Shown in pieces: positions 6,819 through 40,000 of a stretch of 40,000 bases of DNA. Numbering within the stretch: the first letter of the stretch is position 1; every line of letters begins with the position of its first letter. The position numbers were made by a program, and so were the translations under genes. Source of the stretch: Amycolatopsis orientalis DSM 40040 = KCTC 9412 (GTDB lineage Bacteria; Actinomycetota; Actinomycetes; Mycobacteriales; Pseudonocardiaceae). The stretch is taken from contig NZ_ASJB01000062.1 of NCBI RefSeq assembly GCF_000478275.1, positions 56,344-96,343 on the forward strand. Direction: 5' to 3'. Under the pieces are notes generated by a model. It searched no databases, had not been told where the DNA came from, and saw nothing but the letters and a program-made list of their open reading frames with translations.

Positions 6819-6943
6819 TGGAGGCTCCCGACGATACTTCGGTCCGTGGGGCGATGGGTGCGCGCGCTGGACTTCAGCGTAGGGAACCCGGATTCCGGCG
6901 GCTAGCGCACTTTCCGGGGGTAACAAGGTGAATTCGCCGGTCC

Positions 6944-6999
6944 CGTGGCTCGTGAGTGGTAATGACGGTTAGAACCGTCATTACCACTCACGAGCCACG
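6944..6999. repeat. perfect palindrome (26-27 bp arms, 2-nt centre)
   Basis: (C)GTGGCTCGTGAGTGGTAATGACGGTT-AG-AACCGTCATTACCACTCACGAGCCAC(G), checked base by base. Confidence 0.95.
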
Positions 7000-7046
7000 A
7001 GGGTGTTCAGAACGTGAGGGGAGCGCGAGGGTCACTCGGGGTGAGG

Positions 7047-7091
7047 GGTGTGTGGAAATAGGGACACTGAACGTCTCTATTTCCACACACC
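7047..7091. repeat. hairpin with 15-bp stem and 15-nt conserved loop
   Basis: GGTGTGTGGAAATAG (7047-7061), loop GGACACTGAACGTCT (7062-7076), CTATTTCCACACACC (7077-7091). Homologous hairpin at 37249-37293. Confidence 0.9.
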
Positions 7092-7116
7092 CTCGCATCG
7101 CCGGTCCCGTGGCTGT

Positions 7117-7169
7117 GTCCTGAAGGACCCCTTTGAGACGGTGAACGTCGCAAAGGGGTCCTTCAGGAC
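7117..7169. repeat. hairpin with 19-bp perfect stem and 15-nt conserved loop
   Basis: GTCCTGAAGGACCCCTTTG (7117-7135), loop AGACGGTGAACGTCG (7136-7150), CAAAGGGGTCCTTCAGGAC (7151-7169). A degenerate homologue lies at 37081-37126. Confidence 0.9.
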
Positions 7170-7300
7170 GCCCTCCGCTTGCCGGGGCCATCGCTCCTGG
7201 GCGATTTGGAACACCTCGCCGAATCCCCCATCGCAGGTCGGCAGTAGGTACGGAAGGGTCTCGGGTCGAGGGGAGCGCGAGTGTCACTCGGGGTGAGCCG

Positions 7301-7362
7301 GTCCAGTTCTCGTGAGTGGTAATGACGGTTCTAACCCTCATTACCACTCACGAGAACTGGAC
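7301..7362. repeat. palindrome (30-bp arms, one mismatch, 2-nt centre), possible terminator of the 7371..8216 gene
   Basis: GTCCAGTTCTCGTGAGTGGTAATGACGGTT-CT-AACCCTCATTACCACTCACGAGAACTGGAC. It ends 8 bp from the stop codon (7371-7373) of the upstream minus-strand gene. Confidence 0.9.
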
Positions 7363-12248: not shown

Positions 12249-12325
12249 CTGAAGGACGCTTTCCCCGCATAAGATGCGAGGAAAGCGTCCTTCACCGCGT
12301 GAGATGCGGGGAAAGGGCCCTTCAG
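12249..12325. repeat. 77-bp structured repeat (one left arm, two alternative right arms), copy 1
   Basis: L CTGAAGGACGCTTTCCCCGCAT (12249-12270), AAG, R1 ATGCGAGGAAAGCGTCCTTC (12274-12293), linker ACCGCGTGAG, R2 ATGCGGGGAAAGGGCCCTTCAG (12304-12325). Second copy at 21477-21553. It lies between convergent genes and overlaps the stop codon 12322-12324 of the minus-strand gene. Confidence 0.9.
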
Positions 12326-21476: not shown

Positions 21477-21553
21477 CTGAAGGGCGCTTTCCCCGCATGC
21501 GATGCGGGGAAAGCGCCCTTCGTCGCGTGAGATGCGGGGAAGGGCCCCTTCAG
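21477..21553. repeat. 77-bp structured repeat (one left arm, two right arms), copy 2, between vanX and vanY
   Basis: L CTGAAGGGCGCTTTCCCCGCAT (21477-21498), GCG, R1 ATGCGGGGAAAGCGCCCTTC (21502-21521, a perfect 20-bp complement of L), linker GTCGCGTGAG, R2 ATGCGGGGAAGGGCCCCTTCAG (21532-21553). Confidence 0.9.
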
Positions 21554-23354: not shown

Positions 23355-23383
23355 GTCCAACCATCGAGGCTGAGCACTTGGAC
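23355..23383. promoter_or_regulatory. StrR/Bbr-type box GTCCAA-N17-TTGGAC upstream of the StrR-like gene
   Basis: Perfect inverted repeat GTCCAA (23355-23360), 17 nt, TTGGAC (23378-23383). TATAAA (-10-like) lies at 23419-23424, which puts the box centre near -62 of the inferred start site. Confidence 0.6.
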
Positions 23384-24519: not shown

Positions 24520-25359
24520 GTGACCATCGAGAAGGTGCTTGTCGTCGGGACCGGGCTGATCGGTACCTCGGTCGCGCTGGCCCTTCGCGAAAAGGACGTG
24601 GCGGTCCACCTCTCCGACGCCGACGCGCGGGCCGCGGCGCTCGCACGGGACCTCGGTGCCGGCCGGGAATGGGCGGGCGAAGAGGTCGACCTGGCCCTGA
24701 TCGCCGTTCCGCCGCACCTGGTGGGGGAGCGGCTGGCCGCGCTGCAGAAGCGAGGGGCCGCTCGGGCTTACACCGACGTGGCCAGCGTCAAGGTCGATCC
24801 GATCGCCGACGCGGAACGGCTCGGCTGCGACCTGACCTCTTACGTGCCCGGCCATCCGCTCGCCGGCCGGGAGAAATCCGGACCGGCGGCGGCCCGCGCC
24901 GATCTGTTCCTCGGCCGTCCCTGGGCACTGTGCCCCGGCACGGAGACGGACGCGGATGCCTTGCGGCTGACCGGGGAACTGGTGTCGTTGTGCGGGGCGA
25001 AGGCCGTCACGGTGGACGCGCGCGAGCACGATGCGGCGGTGGCGCTGGTCTCGCACGCCCCGCATGTGGTGGCGTCGGCGATGGCGGCGAGCCTGACGGG
25101 TGGTGACGACGTCGCACTGGGCCTGGCGGGGCAGGGATTACGGGACGTGACGCGGATCGCGGCCGGGGATCCCTTGCTGTGGCGGATGATCCTCGCGGGG
25201 AACGCCCTGCCGGTCGCGGGAGTGCTCGACCGGATCGCGGGCGATCTCGCGGCGGCGGCCTCGGCGTTGCGGTCCGGCGACCTGGACGAGGTGACGGATC
25301 TGCTGCGGCGCGGCGTCGCGGGACAAGGCCGGATCCCGGCGGGTTCCCCGGGACGCTGA
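24520..25359 (+). CDS. pdh: prephenate dehydrogenase (TyrA family)
   Basis: Rossmann motif VLVVGTGLIGTSVALAL, GHPLAGRE, HDAAVALVSHAPHVVA. GTG start. Confidence 0.9.
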   Translation: MTIEKVLVVGTGLIGTSVALALREKDVAVHLSDADARAAALARDLGAGREWAGEEVDLALIAVPPHLVGERLAALQKRGAARAYTDVASVKVDPIADAERLGCDLTSYVPGHPLAGREKSGPAAARADLFLGRPWALCPGTETDADALRLTGELVSLCGAKAVTVDAREHDAAVALVSHAPHVVASAMAASLTGGDDVALGLAGQGLRDVTRIAAGDPLLWRMILAGNALPVAGVLDRIAGDLAAAASALRSGDLDEVTDLLRRGVAGQGRIPAGSPGR

Positions 25360-25457: not shown

Positions 25458-25486
25458 GTCCAAGTGTCGAAAATGCTCGCTTGGAC
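25458..25486. promoter_or_regulatory. StrR/Bbr-type box GTCCAA-N17-TTGGAC upstream of the exporter-NRPS operon
   Basis: Perfect GTCCAA (25458-25463), 17 nt, TTGGAC (25481-25486). TGAGAT (-10-like) lies at 25520-25525, which puts the box centre near -60. Confidence 0.6.
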
Positions 25487-25556: not shown

Positions 25557-27515
25557 ATGGAAGTGGTGTTGCGCTTCGAGGGGGTGGACAAGAGCGAGAA
25601 CGACCCCGATCCCTGGGTGACGAAGGTCCGCAAGGGGACGGTGCGCCGGGTACTCGCCTACTTCCGCCCGCACATCGGCAAGGTGGCGCTCTTCGTTCTC
25701 GTCGCCGTGCTGGAGTCGCTCATCGTCGTCGCAACCCCCTTGCTGCTGAAGGAACTCATCGACGGCGGCATCGTCAAGAACGATCCCGGGGTCGTGGTCC
25801 TGATGGCCTCCCTCACGGCCGGACTCGCCGTGCTGGCCGCGGCGCTGGCGCTGCTGTCCGGCTACATCTCCGGAAAGATCGGCGAGGGGATCACCTACGA
25901 CCTCCGGGTGCAGGCGCTCGACCACGTCCGGCGGCTGCCGATCGCGTTCTTCACCCGCACCCAGACCGGTGTCCTGGTCGGCAGGCTGCACACCGAACTG
26001 ATCATGGCGCAGCAGCATTTCACCGGTTTGCTGATGGCCGCCACCAGTTTGGTCATGGTCGTGGTGGTGCTGGCCGAGCTGATCTACCTTTCGTGGCTCG
26101 TCGCCGTCATCTCGCTGCTGCTGATCCCGATCTTCCTCGTGCCGTGGATCCGGGTCGGGCGGGCGATCCAGCGGCGCAGCATCCGGCTGATGGACGCGAA
26201 CACCGGCCTCGGCGGACTTCTCCAGGAGCGGTTCAACGTCCAGGGCGCGATGCTCTCCAAGCTCTTCGGCCGTCCGGACGAGGAGATGGCCGAGTACGCG
26301 GACCGCGCCGGGAAGATCCGCGAGGTCGGCGTGAGCCTTTCCGTCTGGGGCCGGATGGCCTTCGTGATGATGGGGCTGATGGCCTCGCTCGCCACGGCGC
26401 TCGTCTACGGGATCGGCGGCGGGCTCGTGCTCGCGGGGGCCTTCCAGCTCGGCACGCTGGTCGCCATCGCCACGCTGCTTTCGCGGCTGTTCGGGCCGAT
26501 CACCCAGCTGTCCGGGATGCAGGAGCTCGCGCAGACCGTCGTGGTCAGCTTCTCCCGGGTCTTCGAGCTGCTCGACCTGAAGCCGCTGATCCAGGAGCGT
26601 CCCGACGCGGTCGAACTCGAAAAGGACGTGGCGCCGGACATCGAGTTCGAGGACGTGGTGTTCCGCTATCCCACCGCGGACGAGGTCTCGCTGGCGTCGC
26701 TGGAACACCTGCGCGCCGAGCGGGAGCGCGGGGAGGTGTCGCCGGATGTCCTGCGCGGCGTGAATTTCCACGTGCGGGCCGGAACGCTCACCGCGCTCGT
26801 CGGCCCGTCCGGCGCGGGGAAGAGCACCATCACCCACCTGGTGTCCCGGCTGTACGACCCGAACTCCGGAAGCGTCCGCGTCGGCGGGCACGATCTGCGG
26901 GACCTCAGCTTCGCCTCGCTCCGCGACACGGTGGGCGTGGTCAGCCAGGACGCCTACCTCTTCCACAACACGATCCGGGAGAACCTTCTCTACGCGCGTC
27001 CGACAGCCACCGAGGACGAGCTGATCGAGGCGTGCAAGGGGGCCCAGATCTGGGACCTGATCGAATCCCTCCCGCTCGGGTTGGACACCGTCTCGGGTGA
27101 TCGCGGCTACCGCATGTCGGGCGGGGAGAAGCAGCGACTGGCCATCGCCAGGCTGCTGCTGAAGGAGCCGACGATCGTCGTGCTCGACGAAGCCACCGCG
27201 CATCTGGACTCCGAATCGGAGGCCGCCGTCCAGCGGGCGCTCAAGACCGCGCTGCGCAGCCGTACCTCGCTGGTGATCGCCCACCGGTTGTCCACGATCC
27301 GCGAGGCCGACCAGATCCTCGTGATCGACGGCGGCCGGGTGCGGGAGCGCGGGACGCACGACGAGCTGCTGGCCGAAGGTGGCCTTTACGCCGAGCTCTA
27401 CCGCACGCAGTTCGCCGACCCGGCGAACGACGCGGCCAAGCCGGAAATCGAAGAAGCCGAGCTGGACGAGCCTGAGCCTCAGCCGGCGATCCAACCCATT
27501 GGCTTCGGAGGATGA
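25557..27515 (+). CDS. tba: fused TMD-NBD ABC exporter (MsbA-like), glycopeptide export (Tba-like)
   Basis: [11 protein letters not shown] and ATG at 25557. Six-helix TMD, then Walker [10 protein letters not shown], signature [14 protein letters not shown] and Walker [13 protein letters not shown]. Track ORF 25179 is over-extended at the 5' end. The stop overlaps the NRPS ATG (ATGA). Confidence 0.9.
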
Positions 27516-29230
27516 CGATGAATTCCGCAGCGCGGACCCCCGCGACGGTGCTGGAGCTGTTCGCCTCGCGGGTGGGGCGGACGCCCGGCGCGGTGGCCGT
27601 GGTCGACGGCGACCGGGTGCTGACCTACCGGGAACTCGACGAGGCCGCGGGCCTGCTGGCCGGACGGCTGGCGGGCCGGGGCATCCGCCGTGGCGACCGG
27701 GTCGCGGTGATGATGGGCCGCTCGGCGGATCTGCTGGTGGCGCTGCTCGCCGTGTGGAAGGCGGGGGCGACGTACGTACCGGTGGACGCCGCCTATCCGG
27801 CGCCGCGGGTGGAATTCATGGTGCGCGATTCGGCGGCCGCGCTGATGGTGTGCTCGGTCGCGTCGCGTGACGCCGTACCGGAGGGCGTCGATTCGCTCGT
27901 GGTGGACGCCGTCACGGACGAGGACGGGCGTGCGCCGACGGCCACGGTGCGCCCGGAGGACCTGGCGTTCGTGATGTACACGTCCGGCTCCACGGGCAGG
28001 CCCAAGGGGGTGGCGATCACCCAGGGCAGTGTCGCGGACTTGGTGCGGGACCCCGGTTGGGCGATGGGGCCGGACGACGCCGTGCTGATGCATTCACCGC
28101 ACGCCTTCGACGCGTCCCTGTTCGAGGTCTGGACGCCGCTGGCCTCGGGCGCGCGGGTGGTGATCGCCGAACCGGGTTCGGTGGACGTGCGGCGCCTGCG
28201 CGCCGCGGCCGCGGCCGGGGTGACGCGGGTGTACCTGACCGCGGGGAGTTTCCGCGCGGTGGCGGAGGAGGCGCCGGAGTCGTTCGCGGCGTTCCGTGAG
28301 GTGCTGACCGGCGGTGACGTGGTGCCCGCGCACGCGGTGCAGCGGGTGCGGCAGGCCTGTCCCGAGGCGCGGTTCCGGAACATGTACGGGCCGACGGAAG
28401 CGACGATGTGCGCGACGTGGTACCCGCTGGAACCGGGCGAGGTGCTGGGTGCGGTGGTGCCGATCGGACGTCCGCTGGCCGGCCGCCGGGTCCAGGTGCT
28501 CGACGAGTCGCTGCGCCCGGTGGAGCCGGGCGTGGTCGGCGACCTGTACCTCTCCGGATGTCTGGCGGAGGGCTACTTCGGCCGGCCGGGGCTGACGGCG
28601 GAGCGGTTCGTCGCGGATCCCTCCGCGCCGGGACAGCGGATGTACTGGACGGGTGACCTCGCCCAGTGGACGGCGGACGGTGAGCTGCTGTTCGCGGGCC
28701 GGGCCGACGACCAGGTGAAGGTCCGCGGGTTCCGGATCGAGCCCGGCGAGATCGAGGCCGCGCTGATCGCCCAGCCGGAGGTCCACGACGCCGTGGTCGC
28801 GGCGATCGAGGGACGGCTGATCGGCTACGTGGTGGCCGATGAGGACGTGGATCCCGTCGTCGTCCGCGAGCGCCTCCGCGCGGAATTGCCGGAATACCTG
28901 GTTCCCGTCGTCGTCCTCACGCTGGACGCGTTGCCCTTGACCCGTAACGGAAAGGTGGACAGGGCGGCGCTGCCCGCGCCCGAGTTCGCGACGGGCGCCG
29001 CGGGCCGTGAACCCGCCACCGAGGAGGAACGCGTCCTTTGTGGACTGTTCGCCGACGTGCTCCGGCTCGACCGGGCCGGGGTCGACGACGGCTTCTTCGA
29101 CCTGGGCGGGGATTCGATCTTCGCGATGCGCCTGGCGGCACGCGCGGCCAAGGCGGGCCTGCTGGTGACACCCGTCCAGATCTTCGAGGAGAAGACCCCC
29201 GCGCGGCTGGCGGCGGTGGCGCGTCCGGTA
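27512..29230 (+). other. NRPS module 1: A-T (approximate bounds), no E domain
   Basis: A3 core [11 protein letters not shown] at 27977-28009. A10 NGKVDR near 28950. Carrier Ser codon at 29114-29116 in FFDLGGDSI. The next domain begins directly with the C-domain N-terminus [11 protein letters not shown] (about 29318). Confidence 0.8.
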
Positions 29231-32200
29231 CCGGCCGACGAGCCCCTCGACGGCCCCCTGCTCGATTTGACCGAAGCGGAGGAGGCGGAGCTGGCGATCG
29301 CCGCTCCGGGTGCCGAGGAGATCTGGCCGCTGGCGCCGTTGCAGGAGGGGTTGCTCTTCGAGTCGATCCTGGACGACGAGGGCTCCGACATCTACCAGGT
29401 GCAGGTGATCCTGGAGCTGAACGGGCCGCTGGACGAAGCCCGGCTGCGGGCCGCGTGGGACACGGTCGTCCACCGGCACCCCGAGCTTCGGCTCACCTTC
29501 CACCGGCTCGAGTCGGGCAAGACGGTGCAGGCCGTCCACGGGGACGTCGCCGTGCCGTGGCGGGCGGTGGATCTGGCGGGTGCCGACGACGTCGACGCGG
29601 CCGTCGGGGCCTTGGCCGGACAGGAACAGGGAAAGCGGTTCGATCTCGCCAAGGCGCCGCTGGTCCGGCTGGTGCTGATCCGGATCGGCGAGGACCGGCA
29701 CCGGCTGCTGTTCGTCATCCACCACATCCTGGTCGACGGCTGGTCGGTGGCGGTGATCCTCAACGAGGTCGCCGACGCGTACACGGCGGGCGGACGGCTG
29801 CCGGAACAGCGCGGCGGCGCCTCCTTCAAGGACTACCTGGCGTGGCTGGACCGGCAGGACAAGGACGCGGCGAGGGCGGCCTGGCGCGACGAGCTGGCCG
29901 GTCTCGACGAGCCCGCGCTGATCGCGACGACGTCCGTCGAGACGGACTACGACTACCGCGCCACCCACCTGACCCCGGCGCTGCACACCAGGCTGCTGGA
30001 GTTCGCCCGTGAGCACGGGCTGACGCCGAGCACGGTGGTGCACGCCGCCTGGGCGCTGGTGCTGGCGCGTCTCACGCGGCGGACCGACGTGGTGTTCGGC
30101 ACCATGGTCGCGACCCGCCCCGCGGAACTCGAGGGTATCGAGTCGATGCCGGGCCTGCTGATGAGCGCGGTGCCGGTGCGGGTGCCCCTCGACGGCGGCC
30201 AACCGGTCGTGGACCTGCTGACCGACCTGCACACCAGGCAGACGGCCCTCAAACCGCATCAGCATCTGGGCCTGCCGGAGATCCAGAAGGCGGCCGGACC
30301 CGGCGCGGGCTTCGACACGCTGCTGGTGATCGAGAACTACCCGCGGGAGTACGCCGCTCAGTTCACGCATCTGCGCACCATCGAAGGCACGCACTATCCG
30401 CTGACCCTCGGCATCACGCCCGGGGAGCGGTTCAAGATCCAGCTCGGCTACTGGCAGGGACAGGTTCCCGACGCCGTCGCCGAATCGCTGCTGGAGTGGT
30501 TCGTCGGCGCGATCGGCGCGCTGGTCGCCGATCCCGCCCGCCCGGTGGGGCGGATCGGGGTGGGCACGGCCGAGACGCGCGAGTGGGCCGCGCCGTTGGT
30601 GGCGGGCGAGCCGCTGCCGTCGCTGGTCGGACGGATCGCGGCGCGGCTGCCGGACAACGTGGCGCTGGTGGACAGCGAGGGTGAGCTGTCCTACGCGGAG
30701 TTGTGGGAGCGGTCGCTGAAGCTCGCGGCCGTGTTGCGGGACAACGGTGTCGGGTCCGAAAGCCGGGTCGGCCTGGTGGTGGGGCGCTCGTCCTGGTGGA
30801 CGGTCGGCATGCTGGGCGTGTTGCTGGCGGGCGGCACTTTCGTGCCGGTGGACCCGGCCTATCCGGACGAGCGCAAGGAATGGATCTTCCGGAGCGCGGA
30901 TCCGATGCTGGTGGTGTGCGAGGGGACGACGCGGGGAGCGGTGCCCGTCGAGTTCGCGGACCGGCTGCTGGTGGTCGACGACGTCGACCTGTCGGCGACT
31001 CCGGAAGCGGAGCTGCCGCGAGTGGATCCGCGCAGCGCCGCGTACGTGATCTACACGTCGGGGTCGACGGGAACTCCGAAGGGAGTCGTCGTCACCCATA
31101 CCGGCCTGGGAAACCTGGCGCTGGCGCATATCGACCGGTTCCGGGTGACGCCGTCGTCGCGGGTGCTGCAGTTCGCCGCGCTCGGCTTCGACACCATCGT
31201 GTCCGAGGTGATGATGGCGTTGCTGTCGGGCGCGACGCTGGTGGTGCCGCCGGAGCAGGAACTGCCGCCCCGGATGGCGTTCTCCGAAACGCTGGAACGG
31301 TGGGGCATCACGCAGGTGAAGGCGCCGCCGTCGGTGCTGGGCACGGTCGACGCGCTGCCGCCGACCGTGGAAACGGTGGTGGCGGCGGGCGAACTCTGCC
31401 CGCCGGGTCTGGTGGACCGGCTGTCCGCGGACCGGCGGATGATCAACGCCTACGGGCCGACCGAGACCACGATCTGCGCGACGATGAGCCTGCCGCTGAC
31501 GCCGGGTCAGCATCCGATCCCGTTCGGTGGCCCGGTTCCCGGGGTGCGCGGATATCTGCTGGACTCGTTCCTGCGTCCGCTGCCTCCCGGGGTGACCGGT
31601 GAGCTGTACCTTTCCGGGATCGGGGTGGCCCGCGGCTATCTGGGCCGTCCGGGGCTGACGGCGGAGCGGTTCGTCGCCGATCCGTTCGCCCCCGGTGAGC
31701 GGATGTACCGGACCGGGGACCTGGCCTACTGGACCGACCAGGGTGAGCTGGTGTCCGCCGGGCGCGCCGACGACCAGGTCAAGATCCGCGGGTTCCGGGT
31801 CGAACCCCGCGAGATCGAGTTCGCCTTGTCCGCCTACCCCCGGATCACGCAGGCCACGGTGACCGTCCGCGAAGACCGCCTGCTCGCCTACGTGACACCG
31901 GGCGACATCGACACGCAGGCGGTGCGGAAACATCTCGCGTCCCGGATGCCCCAGTACATGGTGCCCGCGGCGGTGGTGGCGCTGGACACCCTGCCGCTGA
32001 CGGCGCACGGGAAGATCGACCGGCGCGCGCTACCCGATCCCGAGTTCACCACCGGGGCGCCCGCCAGGGAACCGGCCACCGAGACCGAGCGGGTGCTGTG
32101 CGAGTTGTTCGCCGGTGTCCTCGGTCTGGAGCAGGTCGGGGTGGACGACAGTTTCTTCGATCTGGGCGGGGACTCCATCCTTTCGATGCAGCTGGCGGCG

Positions 32201-35200
32201 CGGGCACGGCGTTCGGGGCTGACGTTCTCCGCCGCCGACGTCTTCGACGGGAAGACACCGGAGCGGATCGCGCGGCTGGCGGAGGAATCGGCGCCGCCGG
32301 AGCCGGGGCGTCCGGCGAAATCCGACGGTGTGGGCGAGGTCCCGTGGACGCCGGTGACGCGGATGCTGGGCGACGGCGTCACGGGATCGGCGTTCGCGCA
32401 GTGGATGGTGGTGGGCGCGCCCGCGGATCTGACGGAGAAGACGGTGGCGGCCGGGTTCGCGGCCGTGGTGGACGCGCACGACATGCTGCGGGCACGGGTC
32501 GTCGACGACGAGAGCGGCCGTCGCCTGCTGGTCGGCGAGCGTGGTTCGGTCACCGGGTCGGTCACCCGCGTGGGACTCGACGGCCGTCCGGTGGACGAGG
32601 TCGTCGAGGAGGCGGCGCGCGACGCCGTGAGCAAGCTGGATCCGTCGGCTGGCGTGCTGGCGCGGGCGGTGTGGGTGGACGCCGGACCGGACCGGATCGG
32701 GCGGCTCGTGGTGGTGGTGCACCACCTGTCGGTCGACGGTGTGTCGTGGCGGGTGCTGCTTTCGGATCTGCAAAGCGCTTGCGAGGCGGTGGCCGCGGGC
32801 CGGGAGCCGGTGCTGGAGCCGGTGGAGGTGTCCTTCAAGCAGTGGGCGGGCCTGCTCGGTGAGTGGGCGGTCTCCGCGGAGCGCGTCGGGGAATTGGCGG
32901 CGTGGAAGGCGATCCTCGGACAGGAGCAGCCGGCCGCCACCCGTGAGCTGACCACGAGTCAGGCCGCGAAGGGCGAAGTGCGCTCGCGGTCGTGGGTGGT
33001 GCCGAAGACGGAGACGTCGGCGTTGGTCGGGCGGGCACCGGTCGTGTTCCACTGCGGCGTCCACGAGATCCTGCTCGCCGGGCTGGCCGGAGCGGTGACG
33101 CGGTGGCGTGGCGGGGACACGGTCCTGGTGGACGTGGAAAGCCACGGCCGCCATCCGGCCGACGGGATGGATCTGTCCCGGACGGTGGGCTGGTTCACCA
33201 GCGCGCATCCGGTCCGGCTGGAAGTGGCGGGGACCGAGCTGGCCGACGTGCTCGCCGGTGGTCCGGCGGCCGGGCGTCTGCTGAAGACGGTCAAGGAGCA
33301 GTCGCGGGCCGTGCCCGGCGACGGGCTCGGCTACGGACTGCTGCGCTACCTCAATGACACGACCGCGCCGGTACTGGCGGAACTGCCGTCGGCGCGGATC
33401 GGGTTCAACTACATGGGCAGGTTCGCCACCGGTGAGGACAGCGGGGTGCGGGCGTGGCAGCCGGTCGGGGACATCGGCAGCTCGCTCGAACCCGGAATGG
33501 GCCTGCCGCACGCGATCGAGGTCAACGCGATCGTCCAGGACCTGCCGGACGGGCCCGAACTGACGCTCATGCTGGAATGGCAGGAGGATTTGCTCGGCGA
33601 AGCCGAGATCGACCAACTGGGCCAAGGGATGCTGGCCGTGCTGGCCGGGCTCGCCCGGCAGGCGGAGGATCCCGCCGCGGGCGGGCACACCGCGTCCGAC
33701 TTCGCTCTCGTCGCACTGGGCCAGGACGAGATCGAGGCCCTCGAAGCCGAATTCGCGGACGCCGGTGGGGTGGCCGACCTGCTGCCGCTGTCACCGTTGC
33801 AGCACGGTCTCGCCTTCCACGCCGGTTTCTCCGGTGACGGCGTCGATGTCTATACCGCGCAAGCGGTGCTGGAACTGACCGGTCCGCTGGACATGCCGCT
33901 GCTGCGGAAGTCCGTCCGCGCGCTCCTGGACAGGCACGCGAATCTGCGCGCCGGCTTCCGGCACGCCGCCGACGGGTCCGCGTACCAGGTGATCCCCGGT
34001 GCCCTGGCGGTGCCGGTGACCCTGGTGGACGTGACCGGGTCGGCGGATCCGGAGGCCGAGGCGGCGGCGGTGGCCGCGGCCGAGCGGGCCCGGCCGTTCG
34101 ATCTGGCCAAGCCCCCGCTGCTGCGGCTGACGGTGGTGGCCTTGGGCGAGAACGACCACCGGCTGGTGCTGACCAACCACCACATCCTGCTCGACGGCTG
34201 GTCGACGCCGCTGCTGCTGGACGAACTGCTCACGCTGTACCGCGACGGGGCGGTTCCGTCCGCGCTCGCGCCGGTCAACCCGTACCGGGAGTACCTGGCC
34301 TGGGTGCGCGAAACCGATCGGGACGCGGCGATCACCGCCTGGCGCGACGCCTTGGCGGGACTGCCGGAGCCGACGCTGGTCGCGGCCGACCGGGCGGTCC
34401 CGGTCCAGGTGCCCGGGCAGATGTGGGCCGAACTGGACGAGGCGTTCGCCGGTGCGCTGGCCGCGCGGGCCCGCGAGTGCGGGGTCACCGTCAGCACGAT
34501 GCTGCAGGCGGTGTGGGGCATGGTGCTGGCCGCGATCACCGGACGCGACGACGTCGTGTTCGGGGCGGTGGTGTCCGGCCGCCCGGCGGAACTGCCCGGC
34601 ATCGAGACCATGGTCGGGCTGTTCATCAACACCGTCCCGGTCCGGGTCCGGATGGAACCCCGGCACACCTTCGCCGAACTGGTGAAGGAAGTGCAGGACG
34701 AGCAGATCGCCTTGCTGGCCCATCACCACGTCGGCCTCACCGACATCCAGCAGACCGCCGGACTGGGCAGGCTGTTCGACACGCTCGTCGTCTACGAGAA
34801 CTACCCCCGGCCAGCCGAGACCGCCGACGCGGAACCGGATCGGTTGCGGGTGCTGGGAATGACCGCCGCCGACGCCACGCACTATCCGCTGGCGCTGGCC
34901 GTCGTCCCGGGCGAAAGCCTGCGGCTGCGGCTGGAACACCAGCCCGCGATGTTCACCACCGAGCAGGCGGCCGCCGTGCTGGACCGGTTCACGCGGGTGC
35001 TCGAAGCCGTGGTCGCCGATCCGGGGACGCCGCTCGCGGCGGTGCCGATCCTGTCCGAGTCCGAACAGCGAGAGCTGCGGGCGCGCAACGACACCGCGGT
35101 GCCGGTGCCGGACCGGACGCTGCCGGAGTTGTTCGCCGCGCAGGTCGCCGCCACCCCGGACGCGACCGCGGTGACCTTCGAGGACCGGTCGCTGTCCTAC

Positions 35201-36958
35201 GCCGAACTCGACGCCCGCGCCGATCGGCTGGCACGCCGGCTCATCGAGCGGGGTGTCGGTCCCGAAGGCCTGGTCGCGGTGATGATGCCCCGGTCGCTGG
35301 ACCTGGTCGTCACGGTGCTGGCGATCACCAAGACCGGAGGAGCCTGGCTGCCGATCGACCCGGTCTACCCGGCCGATCGTGTCACCTACATCCTCGACGA
35401 CGCCCGGCCGGCACTGGTGATCACGAGCGCCGCGCTGGCGGACTCGCCCGCCGGTGAGGTGCTGGCGGCACGGCCGGCGACGGTGGTGCTCGACGATCTC
35501 GCGACCGCGGGCGGCGAGCACACGCCGGTCACCGACGCCGATCGGATCCGGCCGCTGGATCCGCGTCATCCGGCCTACCTCATCTACACCTCGGGCTCGA
35601 CCGGCCGCCCCAAGGCCGTCGTCGTCACCCACCGGAACCTGGCGAACTATCTGTTCCACTGCGGGAAGAAGTACCCGGGGCTGCGGGGACGGTCGCTGCT
35701 GCATTCGTCGATCGCCTTCGACCTGACGGTCACCGCGATGCTCACCCCGCTCACCGTCGGGGGAACGGTCCAGGTCGGTGCGCTGGAAGACCTGATCGGC
35801 ACGGTGGAAAGCGCCCCGGCGCTGTTCCTCAAGGCCACGCCGAGCCATTTGCAGACGCTGGAGACCGGCTCCCGGGAGATCGCCGTTCCCGGTGATCTCC
35901 TGCTCGGCGGCGAACAGTTGTCCGTCGAGACGGTCGCCGACTGGCGCCGGACGTATCCGAACACCGTGGTGGTCAACGAATACGGGCCGACGGAGGCGAC
36001 GGTCGGGTGCGTCGAATACCGGCTCGAACCCGGGCAGGCGGCGCCGTCCGGCGACGTGGTGCCGATCGGCACCCCGATGACGAACATGCGGGCGTTCGTC
36101 CTGGATTCGTGGCTGCGGCCGGTGCCGCCGGGCGCGGTGGGCGAGTTGTACGTGTCCGGTGCGGGCGTGGCACGGGGTTATCTGGGGCGGGCGGGGCTGA
36201 CCGCGACGCGGTTCGTGGCCGATCCGTTCGGTGCCGGTGAACTGATGTACCGGACCGGGGACCTGGTGCGGTGGAACCCGGACGGGGAACTGGTCTTCGC
36301 CGGCCGTGTCGACGACCAGGTGAAGGTGCGGGGATACCGCATCGAACCCGGTGAGATCGAGGCGGCACTGGAGGCGCACGAATCGGTGGGGCAGGCCGTC
36401 GTACTGGCCAGGGACAGTGCTTCCGGCAAACGACTGATCGGCTATGTGACTCCCGCCGGGGACACCGGGGTGGACGTCGCCGCGGTGCGCGCGGCCGTGG
36501 CGGCCCGGCTGCCGGAGTACATGGTGCCCGCGGCGGTGGTGGTGCTCGACGCGCTTCCGTTGACGGCCAACGGGAAAGTGGACCGGGACGCGCTGCCGGA
36601 TCCCGACTTCAACGAACGCGTCTCGGGCCGGGAACCCGTCACGGAGGCCGAACGGCTGCTGTGCGCGCTTTTCGCCGAGGTCCTCGGCCTGGAGCGGGCA
36701 GGCGCGGACGACAGTTTCTTCGAACTGGGCGGGGATTCGATCCTGTCGATGCGACTGGCGGCGCGGGCGCACCGCGAGGGAATGGCCTTCGGCGCACGCG
36801 AGGTGTTCGAGCTGCGGACGCCCGCCGGGATCGCGGCGATCGTCGAGCGGGCACCGGATGTGCCCGCCGCGGCGGACTATGCCGGGTCCGACGTCGCCCT
36901 GCTCGAACTGAACCAGGACGAAATCGACGAATTCGAAGCCGAGTTCGACGCCTCGTGA
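27512..36958 (+). CDS. bpsA: glycopeptide NRPS 1, three modules (A-T / C-A-T-E / C-A-T), BpsA/CepA-like
   Basis: 3148 aa. Three adenylation cores, three carrier-protein GGDS sites, and three HHxxxDG motifs (two C, one E). Hand-read specificity codes are DAFYLGMMCK (Leu), DTSKVAAICK (Tyr/beta-OH-Tyr) and DLTKLGEVGK (Asn). The stop codon TGA 36956-36958 lies inside a repeat element. Confidence 0.95.
29300..33715 (+). other. NRPS module 2: C-A-T-E (approximate bounds)
   Basis: C HHILVDG at 29720-29740. A3 core [11 protein letters not shown] at 31052-31084. Carrier Ser at 32174-32176. E-domain [10 protein letters not shown] starting at 32720. Confidence 0.8.
33770..36958 (+). other. NRPS module 3: C-A-T plus a short acidic C-terminal tail (approximate bounds)
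   Basis: C HHILLDG at 34178-34198. A3 core [11 protein letters not shown] at 35585-35617. Carrier Ser at 36737-36739. Tail ...[23 protein letters not shown]. Confidence 0.8.
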
Positions 36959-37222
36959 GTGGTAATGAGGGTTATTTGAGGGGTAGGGCAAATGTGTCCC
37001 CAATGTGGCATTGGGGACGTTCAAGGTCTCCAATGCCACATTGGGGACACCGGCTCCGAAACACGGGCCCGGATCCCGTTCTGAAGGGAAGGTTCGAGAC
37101 GCTCCACGTCTGAAAGGGGCCTTCAGGGCACCCCAGGCCGCGAAAACCCCACCTGGCCCAGGGTGCACCACGCAGCTGTGTTTGCCTTACCTCTCAATAG
37201 AACCGTCATTACCGCTCACGAG
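36952..37222. mobile_element. MITE-like 271-bp element with terminal inverted repeats of about 33 bp, no coding capacity
   Basis: Left end CTCGTGAGTGGTAATGAGGGTTATTTGAGGGG (from 36952). The reverse complement of the right end (37190-37222) is CTCGTGAGCGGTAATGACGGTTCTATTGAGAGG, about 27 of 33 matches. Interior carries the hairpin 36994-37050 (21-bp perfect stem) and a degenerate CTGAAGG hairpin at 37081-37126. No target-site duplication is evident. Confidence 0.6.
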
Positions 37223-37472
37223 AGCGCGAGTTGTCACTCAGGGTGAGAGGTGTGTGGAAAGAGAGACGTTCACCGTCCCTCTTTCCACACACCCCTCGCA
37301 TCTCCACCGGTCTGGCCGAGGTGACCGGGCTGATCGCGCGGGACTGTGTGGATTTCTGTTCATCTAACGGAACAAAATCCACACAGTCGGCGCCCTTCGG
37401 TGGGTCGTGAGTGGTAAGTGTCGTTAGAACGACACTTACCACTCACGACCCGCCAGACCCACCACTCACGAG
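37222..37472. repeat. continuation of the hairpin-repeat block (locus 2)
   Basis: GAGCGCGAGTTGTCACTCAGGGTGAG at 37222-37247. Hairpin 37249-37293 (GGTGTGTGGAAAGAG / loop AGACGTTCACCGTCC / CTCTTTCCACACACC). CTCGCATC. Hairpin 37342-37388 (GACTGTGTGGATTT...AAATCCACACAGTC). Perfect palindrome 37402-37451 (GGGTCGTGAGTGGTAAGTGTCGTT-AG-AACGACACTTACCACTCACGACCC). Solo end fragment ACCACTCACGAG at 37461-37472. Confidence 0.85.
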
Positions 37473-37542
37473 GCCGCGGGGAGACTGGACATGTTGTCCG
37501 GTAAGGCCTTTCAGGCGGATGATTCTGCTGCCGGGGGGACAG

Positions 37543-37635
37543 GCGGGTTCCGATGCCGCCCTCCTCGAGCCGAATCGAGACGGGATCGTCGAATTCGAAC
37601 CCGAATTGGACGACGTACTTCAGGCCCTTCGCTGA
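37543..37635 (+). pseudogene. relic of an NRPS-1 3' terminus (diverged duplicate of 36881-36958), ending with its own TGA 15 nt before the NRPS-2 ATG
   Basis: Translation AGSDAALLEPNRDGIVEFEPELDDVLQALR* versus the live tail [25 protein letters not shown]. By hand count, 52 of 69 nt are identical over 36881-36949 versus 37543-37611. GAGGGAG RBS at 37638-37644. Confidence 0.6.
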
Positions 37636-37650
37636 TTGAGGGAGATATCG

Positions 37651-40000
37651 ATGAACCAGTCGCGGATTGAGGAAATCTGGCCGCTGTCGCCATTGCAGGC
37701 CGGGTTGCTCTTCCACGCGGTTTACGACGGCGAAGGGCCCGACGTCTACATAGGACACTGGATCCTGGACCTGACCGGGCCGGTGGACGCGCCCAGGCTG
37801 CGCGCGGCCTGGGAGACGCTGCTCGCGCGGCACGCCCCGCTCCGGGCCTGCTTCCGGCAGCGCAAATCGGGTGAGACGGTGCAGATCATCGCCCGGCAGG
37901 TCGACCTGCCGTGGCGGGAGATCGACCTTTCCCACCTCGACGACCCCGAGAAGGCCGTGCGGGAGCTGGCCGAAGAGGACCGGACGACGAGGTTCGACCT
38001 CGCGCAGGCGCCGTTGCTGCGGCTGACTTTCCTCCGTCTCGGCGACGACACGTACCGCCTGGTGGTGACCTGCCACCACACGATCATGGACGGCTGGTCG
38101 CTGCCCATCGTGCTGGACGAGATGTCGAAGCTGTACGCGGCAGACGGCGAATCGCCGGGCCTGCCGGAAGTGACGTCCTATCGCGACTATCTCGCGTGGC
38201 TGGGCAGGCAGGACAAGGAGAAGTCGCTCGCCGCCTGGGCGGAACGCCTGCGCGGAGTCGACGAGCCGACGCTGGTGGTGCCCGCCGATCCGGGCCGTGC
38301 GCCCGCCGAACCGGAGAGCGTCGAGGTCGGGCTGCCGGAGAACCTCACGCGATCGCTGGGCGAACTCGCCCGCGCTCACGGGCTGACGCTGAACACGGTG
38401 GTGCAGGGCGCGTGGGCGCTGGTGCTGGCGCAGCTCGCGGGCCGGACCGACGTGGTGTTCGGCGCGGCGGTCTCGGCGCGCCCGCCGGATCTGCCCGGCG
38501 TGGAAGGCATGGTCGGGTTGTTCCTCAACACCGTTCCCGTGCGCGTGCGCCTGTCCGGCGCGACGCCGGTCGTCGAGCTGCTGACGGAAGTGCAGCGACG
38601 GCAGTCGGCGCTCATCCCCGACCAGTACGTGGGGCTGGCGGACATCCAGCAGGCCGTCGGTCCCGGCGCGGTCTTCGACACGTTGATCGTCTTCGAGAAG
38701 TTCCACCACGATTCCGGCGAACTGGGTTCCGCGGACACCTTCGGCATCCAGGTCCATCAGGGCCGGGTCGCCGCCCACTATCCGCTGACGCTGGTCGCCG
38801 TCCCCGGCGAGTCGATGTACTTCAAGCTGGACTACCTGACGGAGTTCTTCGACCGGGACGCCGCGCTCGCCATCGCCGAACGCTTCACCGGCGTGCTGCG
38901 TCAGCTGACGCGTGCGGGCGACCTCACGGTGGCCGACGTCGAGGTGGCGAGCGCGGCCGAGCGTGCCTTGGTGGTCGACGCGTGGGGCGTGACGTCGCAG
39001 GCGGCGCCGGGCGTGCCCGCGCTGGATCTGTTCGACAGCCAGGTAAAGCGCCGGAGTGACGAGGTGGCGGTCGTCGACGGCGATCGGACGCTGACCTACG
39101 GAGAACTCGCCGGGCAGGCCGAGCGGCTCGCCGGATATCTGCACGACCGGGGAGTGCGGCGCGGGGACCGGGTGGCCGTGGTGCTGGACCGCTCACCCGA
39201 GCTGATCGCGACCCTGCTCGCGGTGTGGAAGGCGGGCGCGGCCTACGTGCCGGTGGATCCCGCCTATCCGGTGGACCGCGTGCAGTTCATGCTGGCGGAT
39301 TCCGCGCCCGCGGCGGTGGTGTGCGCGGAGCGGTACCGGGACGCCGTGCTGGACACCGGCCTCGCCCCGGTCATCCTGGACGATCCGCGTACGCGGCGGG
39401 AGGTGGCGGACTCCGCTCGCCTGTCGGCCGTCACGAGTGCCGACGACCTCGCGTACGTGATGTACACGTCTGGTTCGACGGGGACGCCGAAGGGCGTCGC
39501 CGTGTCGCACGCCAACGTCGCGGCGCTGGCCGGTGAACCGGGATGGCGGGTGGGTCCCGGCGATGCCGTGCTGCTGCATGCCTCGCACGCCTTCGACATC
39601 TCGCTGTTCGAGCTGTGGGTGCCGCTGCTGTCGGGCGCCAGGGTGGTGCTGGCCGGATCGGGTGCGGTGGACGGCGCGGCGCTGGCCGCCCATGTGGCCG
39701 CCGGTGTCACGGCCGCCCACCTGACCGCGGGGGCCTTCCGGGTACTGGCCGACGAGTCGCCGGAATCCGTCGCCGGGCTGCGCGAGGTGCTGACCGGTGG
39801 CGACGCGGTGCCGCTCGCGGCGGTGGAACGCGTCCGCCGGGTGTGCCCGGACGTGCGGGTGCGTCATCTCTACGGCCCGACCGAGGCCACGCTGTGCGCG
39901 ACGTGGTGGCTGCTCGAACCCGGTGACGAGACGGGCGCGGTACTGCCGATCGGCCGTCCGCTCGCGGGGCGGCGGGTCTACGTCCTCGACGCGTTCCTGC
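37651..40000 (+). CDS. bpsB: glycopeptide NRPS 2 (BpsB/CepB-like), 5' part: C domain + partial A domain of module 4, continues beyond the window
   Basis: Not in the ORF track because it has no stop codon in the window. Own translation from ATG 37651: MNQSRIEEIWPLSPLQAGLLFHAVYDGEGPDVY...CHHTIMDGWS (HH motif 38074-38094). A3 core [11 protein letters not shown] at 39463-39495. Hand-read code DIFHLGLLCK (Hpg). Confidence 0.9.
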   Translation, partial: MNQSRIEEIWPLSPLQAGLLFHAVYDGEGPDVYIGHWILDLTGPVDAPRLRAAWETLLARHAPLRACFRQRKSGETVQIIARQVDLPWREIDLSHLDDPEKAVRELAEEDRTTRFDLAQAPLLRLTFLRLGDDTYRLVVTCHHTIMDGWSLPIVLDEMSKLYAADGESPGLPEVTSYRDYLAWLGRQDKEKSLAAWAERLRGVDEPTLVVPADPGRAPAEPESVEVGLPENLTRSLGELARAHGLTLNTVVQGAWALVLAQLAGRTDVVFGAAVSARPPDLPGVEGMVGLFLNTVPVRVRLSGATPVVELLTEVQRRQSALIPDQYVGLADIQQAVGPGAVFDTLIVFEKFHHDSGELGSADTFGIQVHQGRVAAHYPLTLVAVPGESMYFKLDYLTEFFDRDAALAIAERFTGVLRQLTRAGDLTVADVEVASAAERALVVDAWGVTSQAAPGVPALDLFDSQVKRRSDEVAVVDGDRTLTYGELAGQAERLAGYLHDRGVRRGDRVAVVLDRSPELIATLLAVWKAGAAYVPVDPAYPVDRVQFMLADSAPAAVVCAERYRDAVLDTGLAPVILDDPRTRREVADSARLSAVTSADDLAYVMYTSGSTGTPKGVAVSHANVAALAGEPGWRVGPGDAVLLHASHAFDISLFELWVPLLSGARVVLAGSGAVDGAALAAHVAAGVTAAHLTAGAFRVLADESPESVAGLREVLTGGDAVPLAAVERVRRVCPDVRVRHLYGPTEATLCATWWLLEPGDETGAVLPIGRPLAGRRVYVLDAFL

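Follow-up and report, generated by a model that had tools for sequence, protein, structure and literature searches.

Palindromic repeats and a putative epimerization-domain scar in the spacer between two glycopeptide synthetase genes of Amycolatopsis orientalis

In a 40,000-nt stretch of the Amycolatopsis orientalis DSM 40040 genome (contig NZ_ASJB01000062.1; the whole stretch is called the window), the first and the second nonribosomal peptide synthetase genes of a glycopeptide cluster, NRPS-1 and NRPS-2, are separated by 692 nt from stop codon to ATG (36959-37650), and a 521-bp block of hairpins (36952-37472) begins on the last codons of NRPS-1. We consider it likely that this block is a lineage-specific pile-up of non-coding palindromic repeats that resemble repetitive extragenic palindromes (REPs) and transposable elements of the miniature inverted-repeat type (MITEs), some of them nested, inside a much older spacer. 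The block is not a newly arrived, disruptive insertion but repeat DNA of an ordinary kind, and the NRPS-1 protein is barely changed. The original prediction had assumed that the block separates two otherwise tightly coupled genes. However, among 23 orthologous NRPS-1/NRPS-2 junctions compact gaps were found in only four (21, 28, 41 and 75 nt), and the remaining 19 measure 83-1326 nt. Moreover, about 165 of the 692 nt, directly ahead of NRPS-2 (37485-37650), are not repeats but a decayed coding sequence, here called the scar. Judged from these junctions, a long spacer is the normal and ancient state, and the block did not create the separation of the genes.

Variation between clusters is confined to the stretch from the NRPS-1 stop to Box 1, a conserved motif at the upstream end of the scar. 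This stretch is empty in L005 (compared loci and contigs carry L numbers), holds one hairpin each in L003 and L006 and several in L004, L007, L008, L012, L018-L020 and the window, so that the block is absent or different at the junctions of close relatives. In one Streptomyces (L010, 8695-9810) a complete prephenate dehydrogenase gene (pdh) lies inside the spacer upstream of the scar, and in another (L011, 8830-9830) the spacer contains 1.1 kb without a Pfam match. The case that would have spoken against a repeat insertion, namely an ancestral conserved spacer without repeat character, applies to 37473-37650 and does not apply to 36952-37472. The same hairpin families occur in other Amycolatopsis spacers in varying number, order and orientation; the spacers were compared by pairwise BLAST, as a MAFFT alignment of whole spacers was uninformative in the repeat part, where units are rearranged. 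The junctions most similar to the window are 88% identical (A. decaplanina and A. regifaucium), and the synthetase sequence groups with the vancomycin-type clade L003-L007 (85-88%), as does the scar. A. oliviviridis (L006) and A. speibonae (L007) have, at this junction too, the inner arm TAAGTGTCGTT of the short palindrome in the window, and this palindrome was therefore probably inherited.

The repeat block and the 3' end of NRPS-1

The NRPS-1 open reading frame (ORF; 27512..36958, 3148 aa) ends with the codons GAC GCC TCG TGA (36947-36958), giving the protein end EFEAEFDAS. The repeat end CTCGTGAGTGG (36952-36962) contains the TCG TGA of NRPS-1 (36953-36958). The proposal that the stop codon and probably the serine codon are element sequence is supported, since TCG TGA falls into the conserved 10-mer of the repeat. 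At the opposite border, ACCACTCACGAG provides a perfect 14-nt complement to 36950-36963 and is probably the leftover of another copy. Between these borders we found perfect stems of 21 bp (36994-37050), 15 bp (37249-37293), 14 bp (37342-37388) and 24 bp (37402-37451) as well as long-range arms of 22 nt with 91% complementarity (36952-36973 / 37201-37222). Folding of 36940-37480 yielded -331 kcal/mol compared to -204 +/- 7.5 kcal/mol for dinucleotide shuffles (z = -16.9), none of 100 shuffles being as good. With up to two mismatches, CGTGAGTGGTAA occurs ten times in the window where 1.5 occurrences are expected. A second copy within the window exists for 191 of the 521 nt of the block, in every case in 6940-7360. 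The description of the block as dispersed hairpin repeats was thus borne out, and its coordinates, its hairpins, the 692-nt gap and the 4-nt overlap of tba (25557-27515) with NRPS-1 were all found in the sequence as described.

The block is composite. One family, defined by the ends TCGTGAGTGG and CCACTCACGA, is represented by a long form of 271 bp and a short form of 44 nt, and four other hairpin families are also present (Table 1). The outer 22 nt of each long-form arm correspond to one half of the short form. The arms pair with each other in the minimum-energy fold and enclose only further hairpins and no ORF; the ends match 6949-6994 and 7309-7354 with 96-100% identity, and the arms were also found in L008 and L019. 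A pair homologous to the twin hairpin occurs in the spacer of A. coloradensis. The nested hairpin at 37080-37130 resembles by eye the motif of a window hairpin at 7117-7169, with no significant BLAST match between the two. Copies of the GGTGTGTGGAAA unit are present in L004, L008, L018, L019, L020 and L061, and the GTGTGGATTT hairpin is 84% identical to part of the A. coloradensis spacer and has an inverted copy in L008. The second block of the window contains two 44-nt palindromes (6950-6993 and 7310-7353), one GGTGTGTGGAAA unit and one CTGAAGG hairpin. Because it is built from the same families, such hairpin blocks are recurrent in this genome. In total, the window holds three short copies, one long form and one solo end of the TCGTGAGTGG family in 40 kb. 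A search against Rfam gave no matches at gathering score in the whole window and, at a permissive threshold, only sub-threshold microRNA-hairpin noise in the block. A further hairpin family, TGAAGGRCGCTTTCCCCGCAT...ATGCGGGGAAAGCGYCCTTCA, was noted in the window at 12250-12294 and 21479-21521; one copy lies 25 nt past a vanX-like gene, the other between a plus-strand ferredoxin-domain gene and the 3' end of a minus-strand ricin-lectin gene.

Table 1. Features of the NRPS-1/NRPS-2 junction and related sequences (window coordinates)
Feature	Position	Strand	Remarks
COM-donor type docking tail of NRPS-1	36848..36958	+	after module-3 carrier domain; last Ser codon and TGA lie in the repeat
Long form of the TCGTGAGTGG family, MITE-like	36952..37222 (271 bp)	no strand	terminal inverted arms of ~42 nt, 36952-36993 / 37181-37222
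Twin hairpin GTCCCCAATGTGGCATTGGGGAC (twin CCAATGTGGCATTGGGG / CCCCAATGTGGCATTGGGG hairpin)	36994..37050	no strand	nested in the long form; 21-bp perfect stem
Imperfect CTGAAGG...CCTTCAG hairpin	~37080..37130	no strand	nested in the long form; helix in the fold
GAGCGCGAG..GTCACTC..GGTGTGTGGAAA..TTTCCACACACC..CTCGCATC unit	37224..37301 (hairpin 37245-37297)	no strand	83% identity to 7021-7102
GACTGTGTGGATTT...AAATCCACACAGTC hairpin (GTGTGGATTT hairpin)	37342..37388	no strand	14-bp perfect stem
Short form of the TCGTGAGTGG family	37399..37454	no strand	44-nt palindrome TCGTGAGTGG-N24-CCACTCACGA at 37405-37448; complementary flanks lengthen the stem
Solo repeat end ACCACTCACGAG	37461..37472	no strand	sequence and complementarity to 36950-36963
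Putative pseudogene scar, decayed 3' end of E-domain and docking-tail coding sequence	37485..37635	+	LDMLSGKAFQADDSAAGG / frameshift / GSDAALLEPNRDGIVEFEPELDDVLQALR and stop
Box 1 CTGGACATGTTGTCCGG (17-mer)	37485-37501	+	conserved module across loci
Box 2 GGCGGATGATTC	37514-37525	+	conserved module across loci
Degenerate tail copy in the scar	37532-37612	+	old stop 37633-37635
Ribosome-binding site GAGGGAGA and NRPS-2 ATG (37651)	37638..37653	+	almost invariant in all clusters
Functional module-2 E-domain end in NRPS-1	33632..33761	+	closest coding relative of the scar within the window
Second block, same repeat families	6940..7360 (~420 bp)	no strand	between co-directional minus-strand PEBP-family and HTH genes

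The TCGTGAGTGG family was characterized by scanning soil metagenomes with the pattern TCGTGAGTGG-N10-36-CCACTCACGA, which gave matches on at least 120 contigs; the following numbers refer to the matches listed. Nearly all of these contigs have 65-75% G+C. The palindrome is exactly 44 nt long in 119 of 132 copies. The 44-mers comprise 81 distinct sequences. Their ten outer pairs are fixed as a result of ascertainment, whereas 73-96% of pairings at the eleven inner positions are Watson-Crick, most positions showing three to four types of Watson-Crick pair. Frequently the flanks are complementary as well, which makes the stem longer. Most copies lie outside ORFs. Out of 98 distances to gene ends, 21 place the stop codon inside the element, 53 amount to 1-15 nt, 18 to 16-30 nt and 6 to 31-60 nt, so that 74 are at most 15 nt when stops inside are included; no orientation bias was seen. 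The TGA of the element is the in-frame stop of a long ORF with high G+C content at third codon positions (GC3) in 20 of 130 copies. Supplying a stop codon is a habit of the family, its own TGA being the stop in about 15-20% of metagenome copies, and in two soil metagenome contigs one 44-nt palindrome closes both of two convergent genes, one per strand (L134, 1951-1994; L198, 4203-4246). One contig, L126 (Ga0137414_1161596), is in its entirety a giant inverted repeat, i.e. a fold-back assembly chimera whose two copies have mirrored flanks; it was left out of the pairing and distance counts and is included in the 20 of 130 stops. Comparison of an orthologous site in L019 (9238-9281) and L020 (9562-9605) revealed identical flanks and inner 24 nt that differ at 12 or more positions while being paired in both, which argues that the inner stem was swapped wholesale and not mutated stepwise. 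A literature search for the repeat sequence or for Amycolatopsis repeats returned primer noise only. Target-site duplications were not seen, the flanks of the short copies being complementary (cgtgg/ccacg, ccagtt/aactgg, ggtggg/cccgcc) and not direct repeats, and no parent insertion sequence was identified, although no search aimed at one was made.

Whether the C-terminal docking tail of NRPS-1 is altered had been raised as a question by the original prediction. The docking helix is intact and identical to that of L004, and the stop lies three codons past EFEAEF in the window as in 13 other clusters. Pfam detected only AMP-binding, AMP-binding_C and PP-binding in this end of NRPS-1 and no condensation-family domain, and the tail matches residues 11-42 of the consensus of epimerization (E) domain ends in tblastn. 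NRPS-1 ends in DAS compared to ESGR or DSDR in the nearest clade, so that the change is limited to the last two to three residues. The ending EFEAEFDAS also exists in A. coloradensis, which carries an avoparcin cluster (PMC12049478), and in two other strains; there, the stop (TCT TGA/TAA) is located 9 nt upstream of the repeat. A deletion of 11 nt, between TCTTGA and TCGTGA, may have produced the present overlap in the window. In BpsA, the last ~21 residues act as trans-COM donor, and removal of 37 residues lowered production without abolishing it (bioRxiv 10.64898/2026.08.07.743486). By analogy with this truncation, the effect of the DAS ending on NRPS-1 function is probably minor.

The scar upstream of NRPS-2

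An 81-nt direct repeat (36870-36950 and 37532-37612, 74% identical) reveals a second copy of the NRPS-1 tail downstream of the block. This copy ends in GSDAALLEPNRDGIVEFEPELDDVLQALR, and its stop is situated 15 nt upstream of the NRPS-2 ATG. The module to which it belongs lies directly 5' of NRPS-2 in 18 spacers including that of the window, from Amycolatopsis, Streptomyces, Kutzneria and Actinokineospora, and has the order (C/T)TGGACATGTTGTCCGG, ~12 nt, GGCGGATGATTC, degenerate tail copy, TGA, GAGGGAGA and ATG; it is found at ~9830-10000 in L003-L014 and L017-L021. Box 1 resembled a regulatory site at first sight. However, identical DNA is coding sequence for the C-terminal end of the module-2 E domain (E2) in L005, L008, L009, L010 and L023. 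Translation of the scar yields LDMLSGKAFQADDSAAGG followed by a frameshift, and the E2 end of the window itself (33632-33761) aligns to it with 65% identity over 131 nt (E-value 5e-11; tblastn 3e-17). The scar shares 74-76% of nucleotides with E2-type ends as opposed to 55% with the ends of E4 and E5.

In Kitasatospora putterlickiae (L022, 8470-9972) a complete condensation-family domain of the E type ends module 3 and is followed by a 28-nt gap to NRPS-2. This junction likely represents the ancestral state. NRPS-1 of the window terminates with a carrier domain and the tail only, according to Pfam. On the simplest reading, an E domain once formed the end of NRPS-1, and the scar would be the 3' end of that domain. 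The minimal spacer of L005 (9810-9850) looks like the original duplication junction: it reads DSDR TGA atc TGG CTG GAC, the stop abutting the TGG CTG GAC (W-L-D) of the scar, with a 5-nt duplication of TGGAC. In many clusters the stop follows an arginine, three to four codons past EFEAEF. The abutting stop of L005 and the stops after arginine fit a tandem duplication of roughly the last 50 codons, with an out-of-frame junction that generated the stop, and subsequent loss of the E-domain body. As a separate observation, the docking-tail DNA encoding LLDL..DEIEE forms a 13-16 bp palindrome (CTCCTCGATCT...AGATCGAGGAG) in L008 (9408-9450), L012 (9455-9489) and L005 (6544-6581); the homologous stretch of the window is ~36897-36935. 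This palindrome could promote slippage or duplication at the tail.

Box 1 is nearly invariant, even where the coding E2 copies show synonymous variation, and it is kept in the scars of the window and of L014 although their E2 copies have diverged at Box 1. A conserved small ORF in the scar was rejected, since indels disrupt the reading frame at most loci. Gene conversion from E2 does not account for the conservation, with an identity of 0.764 within loci compared to 0.740 between loci and E2 being diverged at Box 1. No covarying RNA structure was detected in the scar (RNAalifold covariation term ~0; the Box 1 hairpin is invariant and hence uninformative). A canonical StrR site was dismissed because the half-sites of Box 1 (TTGGAC...GTCC) have the wrong order and spacing. 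Overall, the pattern of conservation suggests that Box 1 likely has some function at the level of DNA or RNA.

Based on these comparisons, we propose the following history. The ancestral first synthetase would have ended with an E domain and a short docking tail directly ahead of NRPS-2. A rearrangement, most likely one in which the last ~50 codons were duplicated in tandem and the body of the E domain was then lost, would have left a carrier-attached copy of the tail with a stop three to four codons past EFEAEF. Behind this new stop, ~55 codons from the end of the old E domain and tail would have become untranslated, the resulting scar still bearing the ribosome-binding site of NRPS-2. The few bases from the new stop to the scar then became a permissive landing pad, which comparison of the junctions shows to be empty in one strain, filled with one to many hairpins in Amycolatopsis and occupied by the whole pdh gene in one Streptomyces. 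The TCGTGAGTGG...CCACTCACGA family is a fixed 44-nt palindrome with invariant 10-nt ends and a variable, paired inner stem. By habit it overlaps a stop codon or lies at most 15 nt from one, and it often contributes its own TGA as the stop. In the window, its 271-bp long form lies flush with the last codons of NRPS-1, so that the serine codon and the stop are element sequence. The hairpins are more probably barriers to 3' exonucleases, the one at the stop codon could damp translation termination of NRPS-1, and NRPS-2 would be expressed through read-through, from a promoter within the scar or both.

Alternative origins and transcription across the junction

Some observations weigh against accumulation of the repeats in place. 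The units of the block and the DAS ending match avoparcin-type clusters, whereas the synthetase sequence groups with the vancomycin-type loci. Part of the block may hence have come by recombination and not by insertion. The DAS ending with its stop may predate the overlap, and the stop supplied by the element may stem from a small deletion. Mobility of the repeat is suggested by its distribution, with no empty and filled pair within one species among the sequences compared. Finally, exact 10-nt ends were demanded for the metagenome sample, and a heuristic based on GC3 served to call its ORFs.

Both the window and the avoparcin-type spacers L008 and L012 contain the long form, the twin hairpin, the GGTGTGTGGAAA unit and the GTGTGGATTT hairpin, and recombination therefore remains an alternative to insertion in place. 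In its full form, this explanation states that most of the block (~36950-37390) was imported as a unit by homologous recombination from an avoparcin-type spacer, with crossovers in the conserved tail-coding DNA and further downstream. We regard it as unlikely. The order of the shared units is partly the same in L012, EFEAEFDAS is shared as well, the scar and the adjoining synthetase sequence both cluster with L003-L007, and the tail DNA on both sides of the block is a direct repeat able to support exchange. However, the shared units are only 70-84% identical and partly inverted in L008, and a donor with a collinear block was not found among the compared junctions. The same families also occur elsewhere in the window, so that independent insertions of resident repeats are equally possible.

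A second alternative regards the block as a selected insulator or terminator that ends the tba-NRPS-1 transcript and places NRPS-2 and the downstream genes in a separately controlled operon. The structures are very stable, and the family is closely bound to the 3' ends of genes like the mycobacterial TRIT motif ('Tuberculosis Rho-independent terminator'; PMC3152330). Reverse transcription PCR at this junction in relatives found the genes co-transcribed in bal and divided into separate operons in knm and in ris (PMC12049478), with a break exactly at the junction in the latter two. Still, the knm spacer (L014) contains no hairpin block, so that its break is not caused by such repeats, and the scar region is therefore suspected as a promoter. 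The original prediction had described the structures as terminator-like, of which only the stems hold. An intrinsic terminator is a hairpin directly followed by a U-tract, and no T-run follows any of the strong hairpins; in 36500-38000 we found two weak terminator-like sites compared to 1.4 expected by chance, both off the strong hairpins. In vitro, hairpins that lack a U-tract do not bring mycobacterial RNA polymerase to termination (PMC3993855), and few mapped 3' ends coincide with TRITs (bioRxiv 2022.06.01.494293). The free variation of block content between species likewise argues against a conserved function. As no hairpin has a U-tract, strong termination seems unlikely, and the hairpins would not be efficient intrinsic terminators by themselves. 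We therefore consider the insulator explanation quite improbable.

REPs at most 15 nt from a stop codon are described as able to stall ribosomes in work cited by PMC12306157. By analogy with the REPs of Escherichia coli, the hairpin at the stop codon may slow translation termination of NRPS-1 and shield the upstream mRNA from 3' exonucleases. With regard to a start of transcription, no sigma-70 consensus promoter was found in the spacer of the window or in the knm spacer L014. The window has just two perfect palindromes of the StrR/Bbr type (GTCCAA-N17-TTGGAC), one at 23355-23383 upstream of the bbr-like regulator gene, the other at 25458-25486 upstream of tba. Given the position of the latter, the start of tba is the ATG at 25557 and not the longest-ORF start at 25179. 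Within two mismatches, no GTCCA-N17/18-TTGGAC palindrome was detected in the spacer of the window, and weak matches in other spacers are restricted to L019 (one to two mismatches) and L012 (two mismatches).

An assembly artefact, such as a collapsed or chimeric repeat join, is extremely improbable: although palindromic repeats do break assemblies, one repeat-bearing metagenome contig is a fold-back chimera and the only public contig with the exact tba product of the window (L203, a 6-kb Logan assembly of SRR850342) ends inside NRPS-1, comparable hairpin-filled spacers with the same flanking tail and scar are present in independent assemblies of at least ten species, and reading frame, scar and ribosome-binding site are in register.

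Beyond the preferred reading of a repeat pile-up within an old spacer, we tentatively raise two possibilities, the combination of which we consider rather doubtful. First, in most glycopeptide clusters the scar may have been co-opted to serve the NRPS-2 operon as promoter, operator or 5' stabiliser. This idea of a control region arises from the stronger conservation of CTGGACATGTTGTCCGG and GGCGGATGATTC in the scar compared to the corresponding bases of the functional E2 coding copy. Second, the TCGTGAGTGG palindrome might be more than selfish DNA, namely an actinobacterial counterpart of TRIT that is bound by a dedicated gene-end protein; its fixed length, its invariant 10-bp boxes and the exchange of the entire inner stem at orthologous sites would then reflect a site-specific, structure-dependent mechanism.

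The presented findings describe the bpsA/bpsB-type junction as an old and plastic spacer, not a tightly coupled pair, which tolerates hundreds of hairpin bases and even a whole gene. For refactoring of such clusters, removal or replacement of 36959-37472 should be safe, whereas the 165 nt ahead of NRPS-2 with their two ultraconserved boxes are worth keeping for now. The scar is a datable footprint of the putative loss of an E domain from module 3 and bears on the origin of the D-D-L-D-D-L-L stereochemistry. The TCGTGAGTGG family is a candidate for a general element of gene ends in soil actinobacteria that routinely rewrites last codons, a point that matters for gene calling in high-GC genomes. 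The more novel items are the family of 44-nt palindromes that keeps close to stop codons and the scar of the E domain with its ultraconserved boxes, and the 17-mer of the scar is more interesting than the block.

Comparison with known systems

The end of NRPS-1 resembles the trans-COM donor tails at the C-termini of BpsA and BpsB in its arrangement of carrier domain, linker and acidic helix. Unlike the tails described, the window has a second, untranslated copy fused to an E-domain end upstream of NRPS-2, of which we found no mention in the cited glycopeptide NRPS literature.

With the REP and BIME sequences of enterobacteria and pseudomonads, including the REPIN doublets mobilised by RAYT transposases, the block shares short, G+C-rich extragenic palindromes that are dispersed and often assembled into mosaic blocks. 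REPs are short repeated extragenic palindromes of 20-40 nt, and the 44-nt palindrome, with its occurrence on at least 120 metagenome contigs, answers this description. The concentration of the TCGTGAGTGG family directly past stop codons is also REP-like, and the termini of GTAG-type REPs often give the flanking ORF its stop codon (PMC3733652). In contrast to REPs, the invariant ends TCGTGAGTGG / CCACTCACGA carry neither a GTAG nor a CGTC tag (tags as in PMC3733652), the palindrome is near-perfect with a fixed length of 44 nt and a freely varying but paired inner stem, and the hosts are high-GC soil actinobacteria.

Compared by description only, TRIT of Mycobacterium is likewise a conserved palindromic hairpin with many copies that is bound to gene ends and lacks a U-tract. 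It typically begins within the coding sequence with the stop codon inside the element, is bidirectional owing to its palindromic nature and has been reported as limited to Mycobacterium (PMC3152330). A comparably narrow distribution around stop codons was found for the TCGTGAGTGG palindrome, with 74 of the 98 listed distances within 15 nt. The Rfam searches of the block and the window returned no TRIT model. The function of TRIT itself as a terminator is doubtful (PMC3993855; bioRxiv 2022.06.01.494293).

Finally, the 271-bp form is similar to bacterial MITEs such as Correia/NEMIS of Neisseria: it is a non-coding element below ~500 bp with terminal inverted repeats of ~42 nt at 36952-37222, has no ORF and is located at the end of a gene, whose last codons it alters. 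It differs from MITEs in the other hairpins nested within it, and the short form resembles two fused MITE-like termini.

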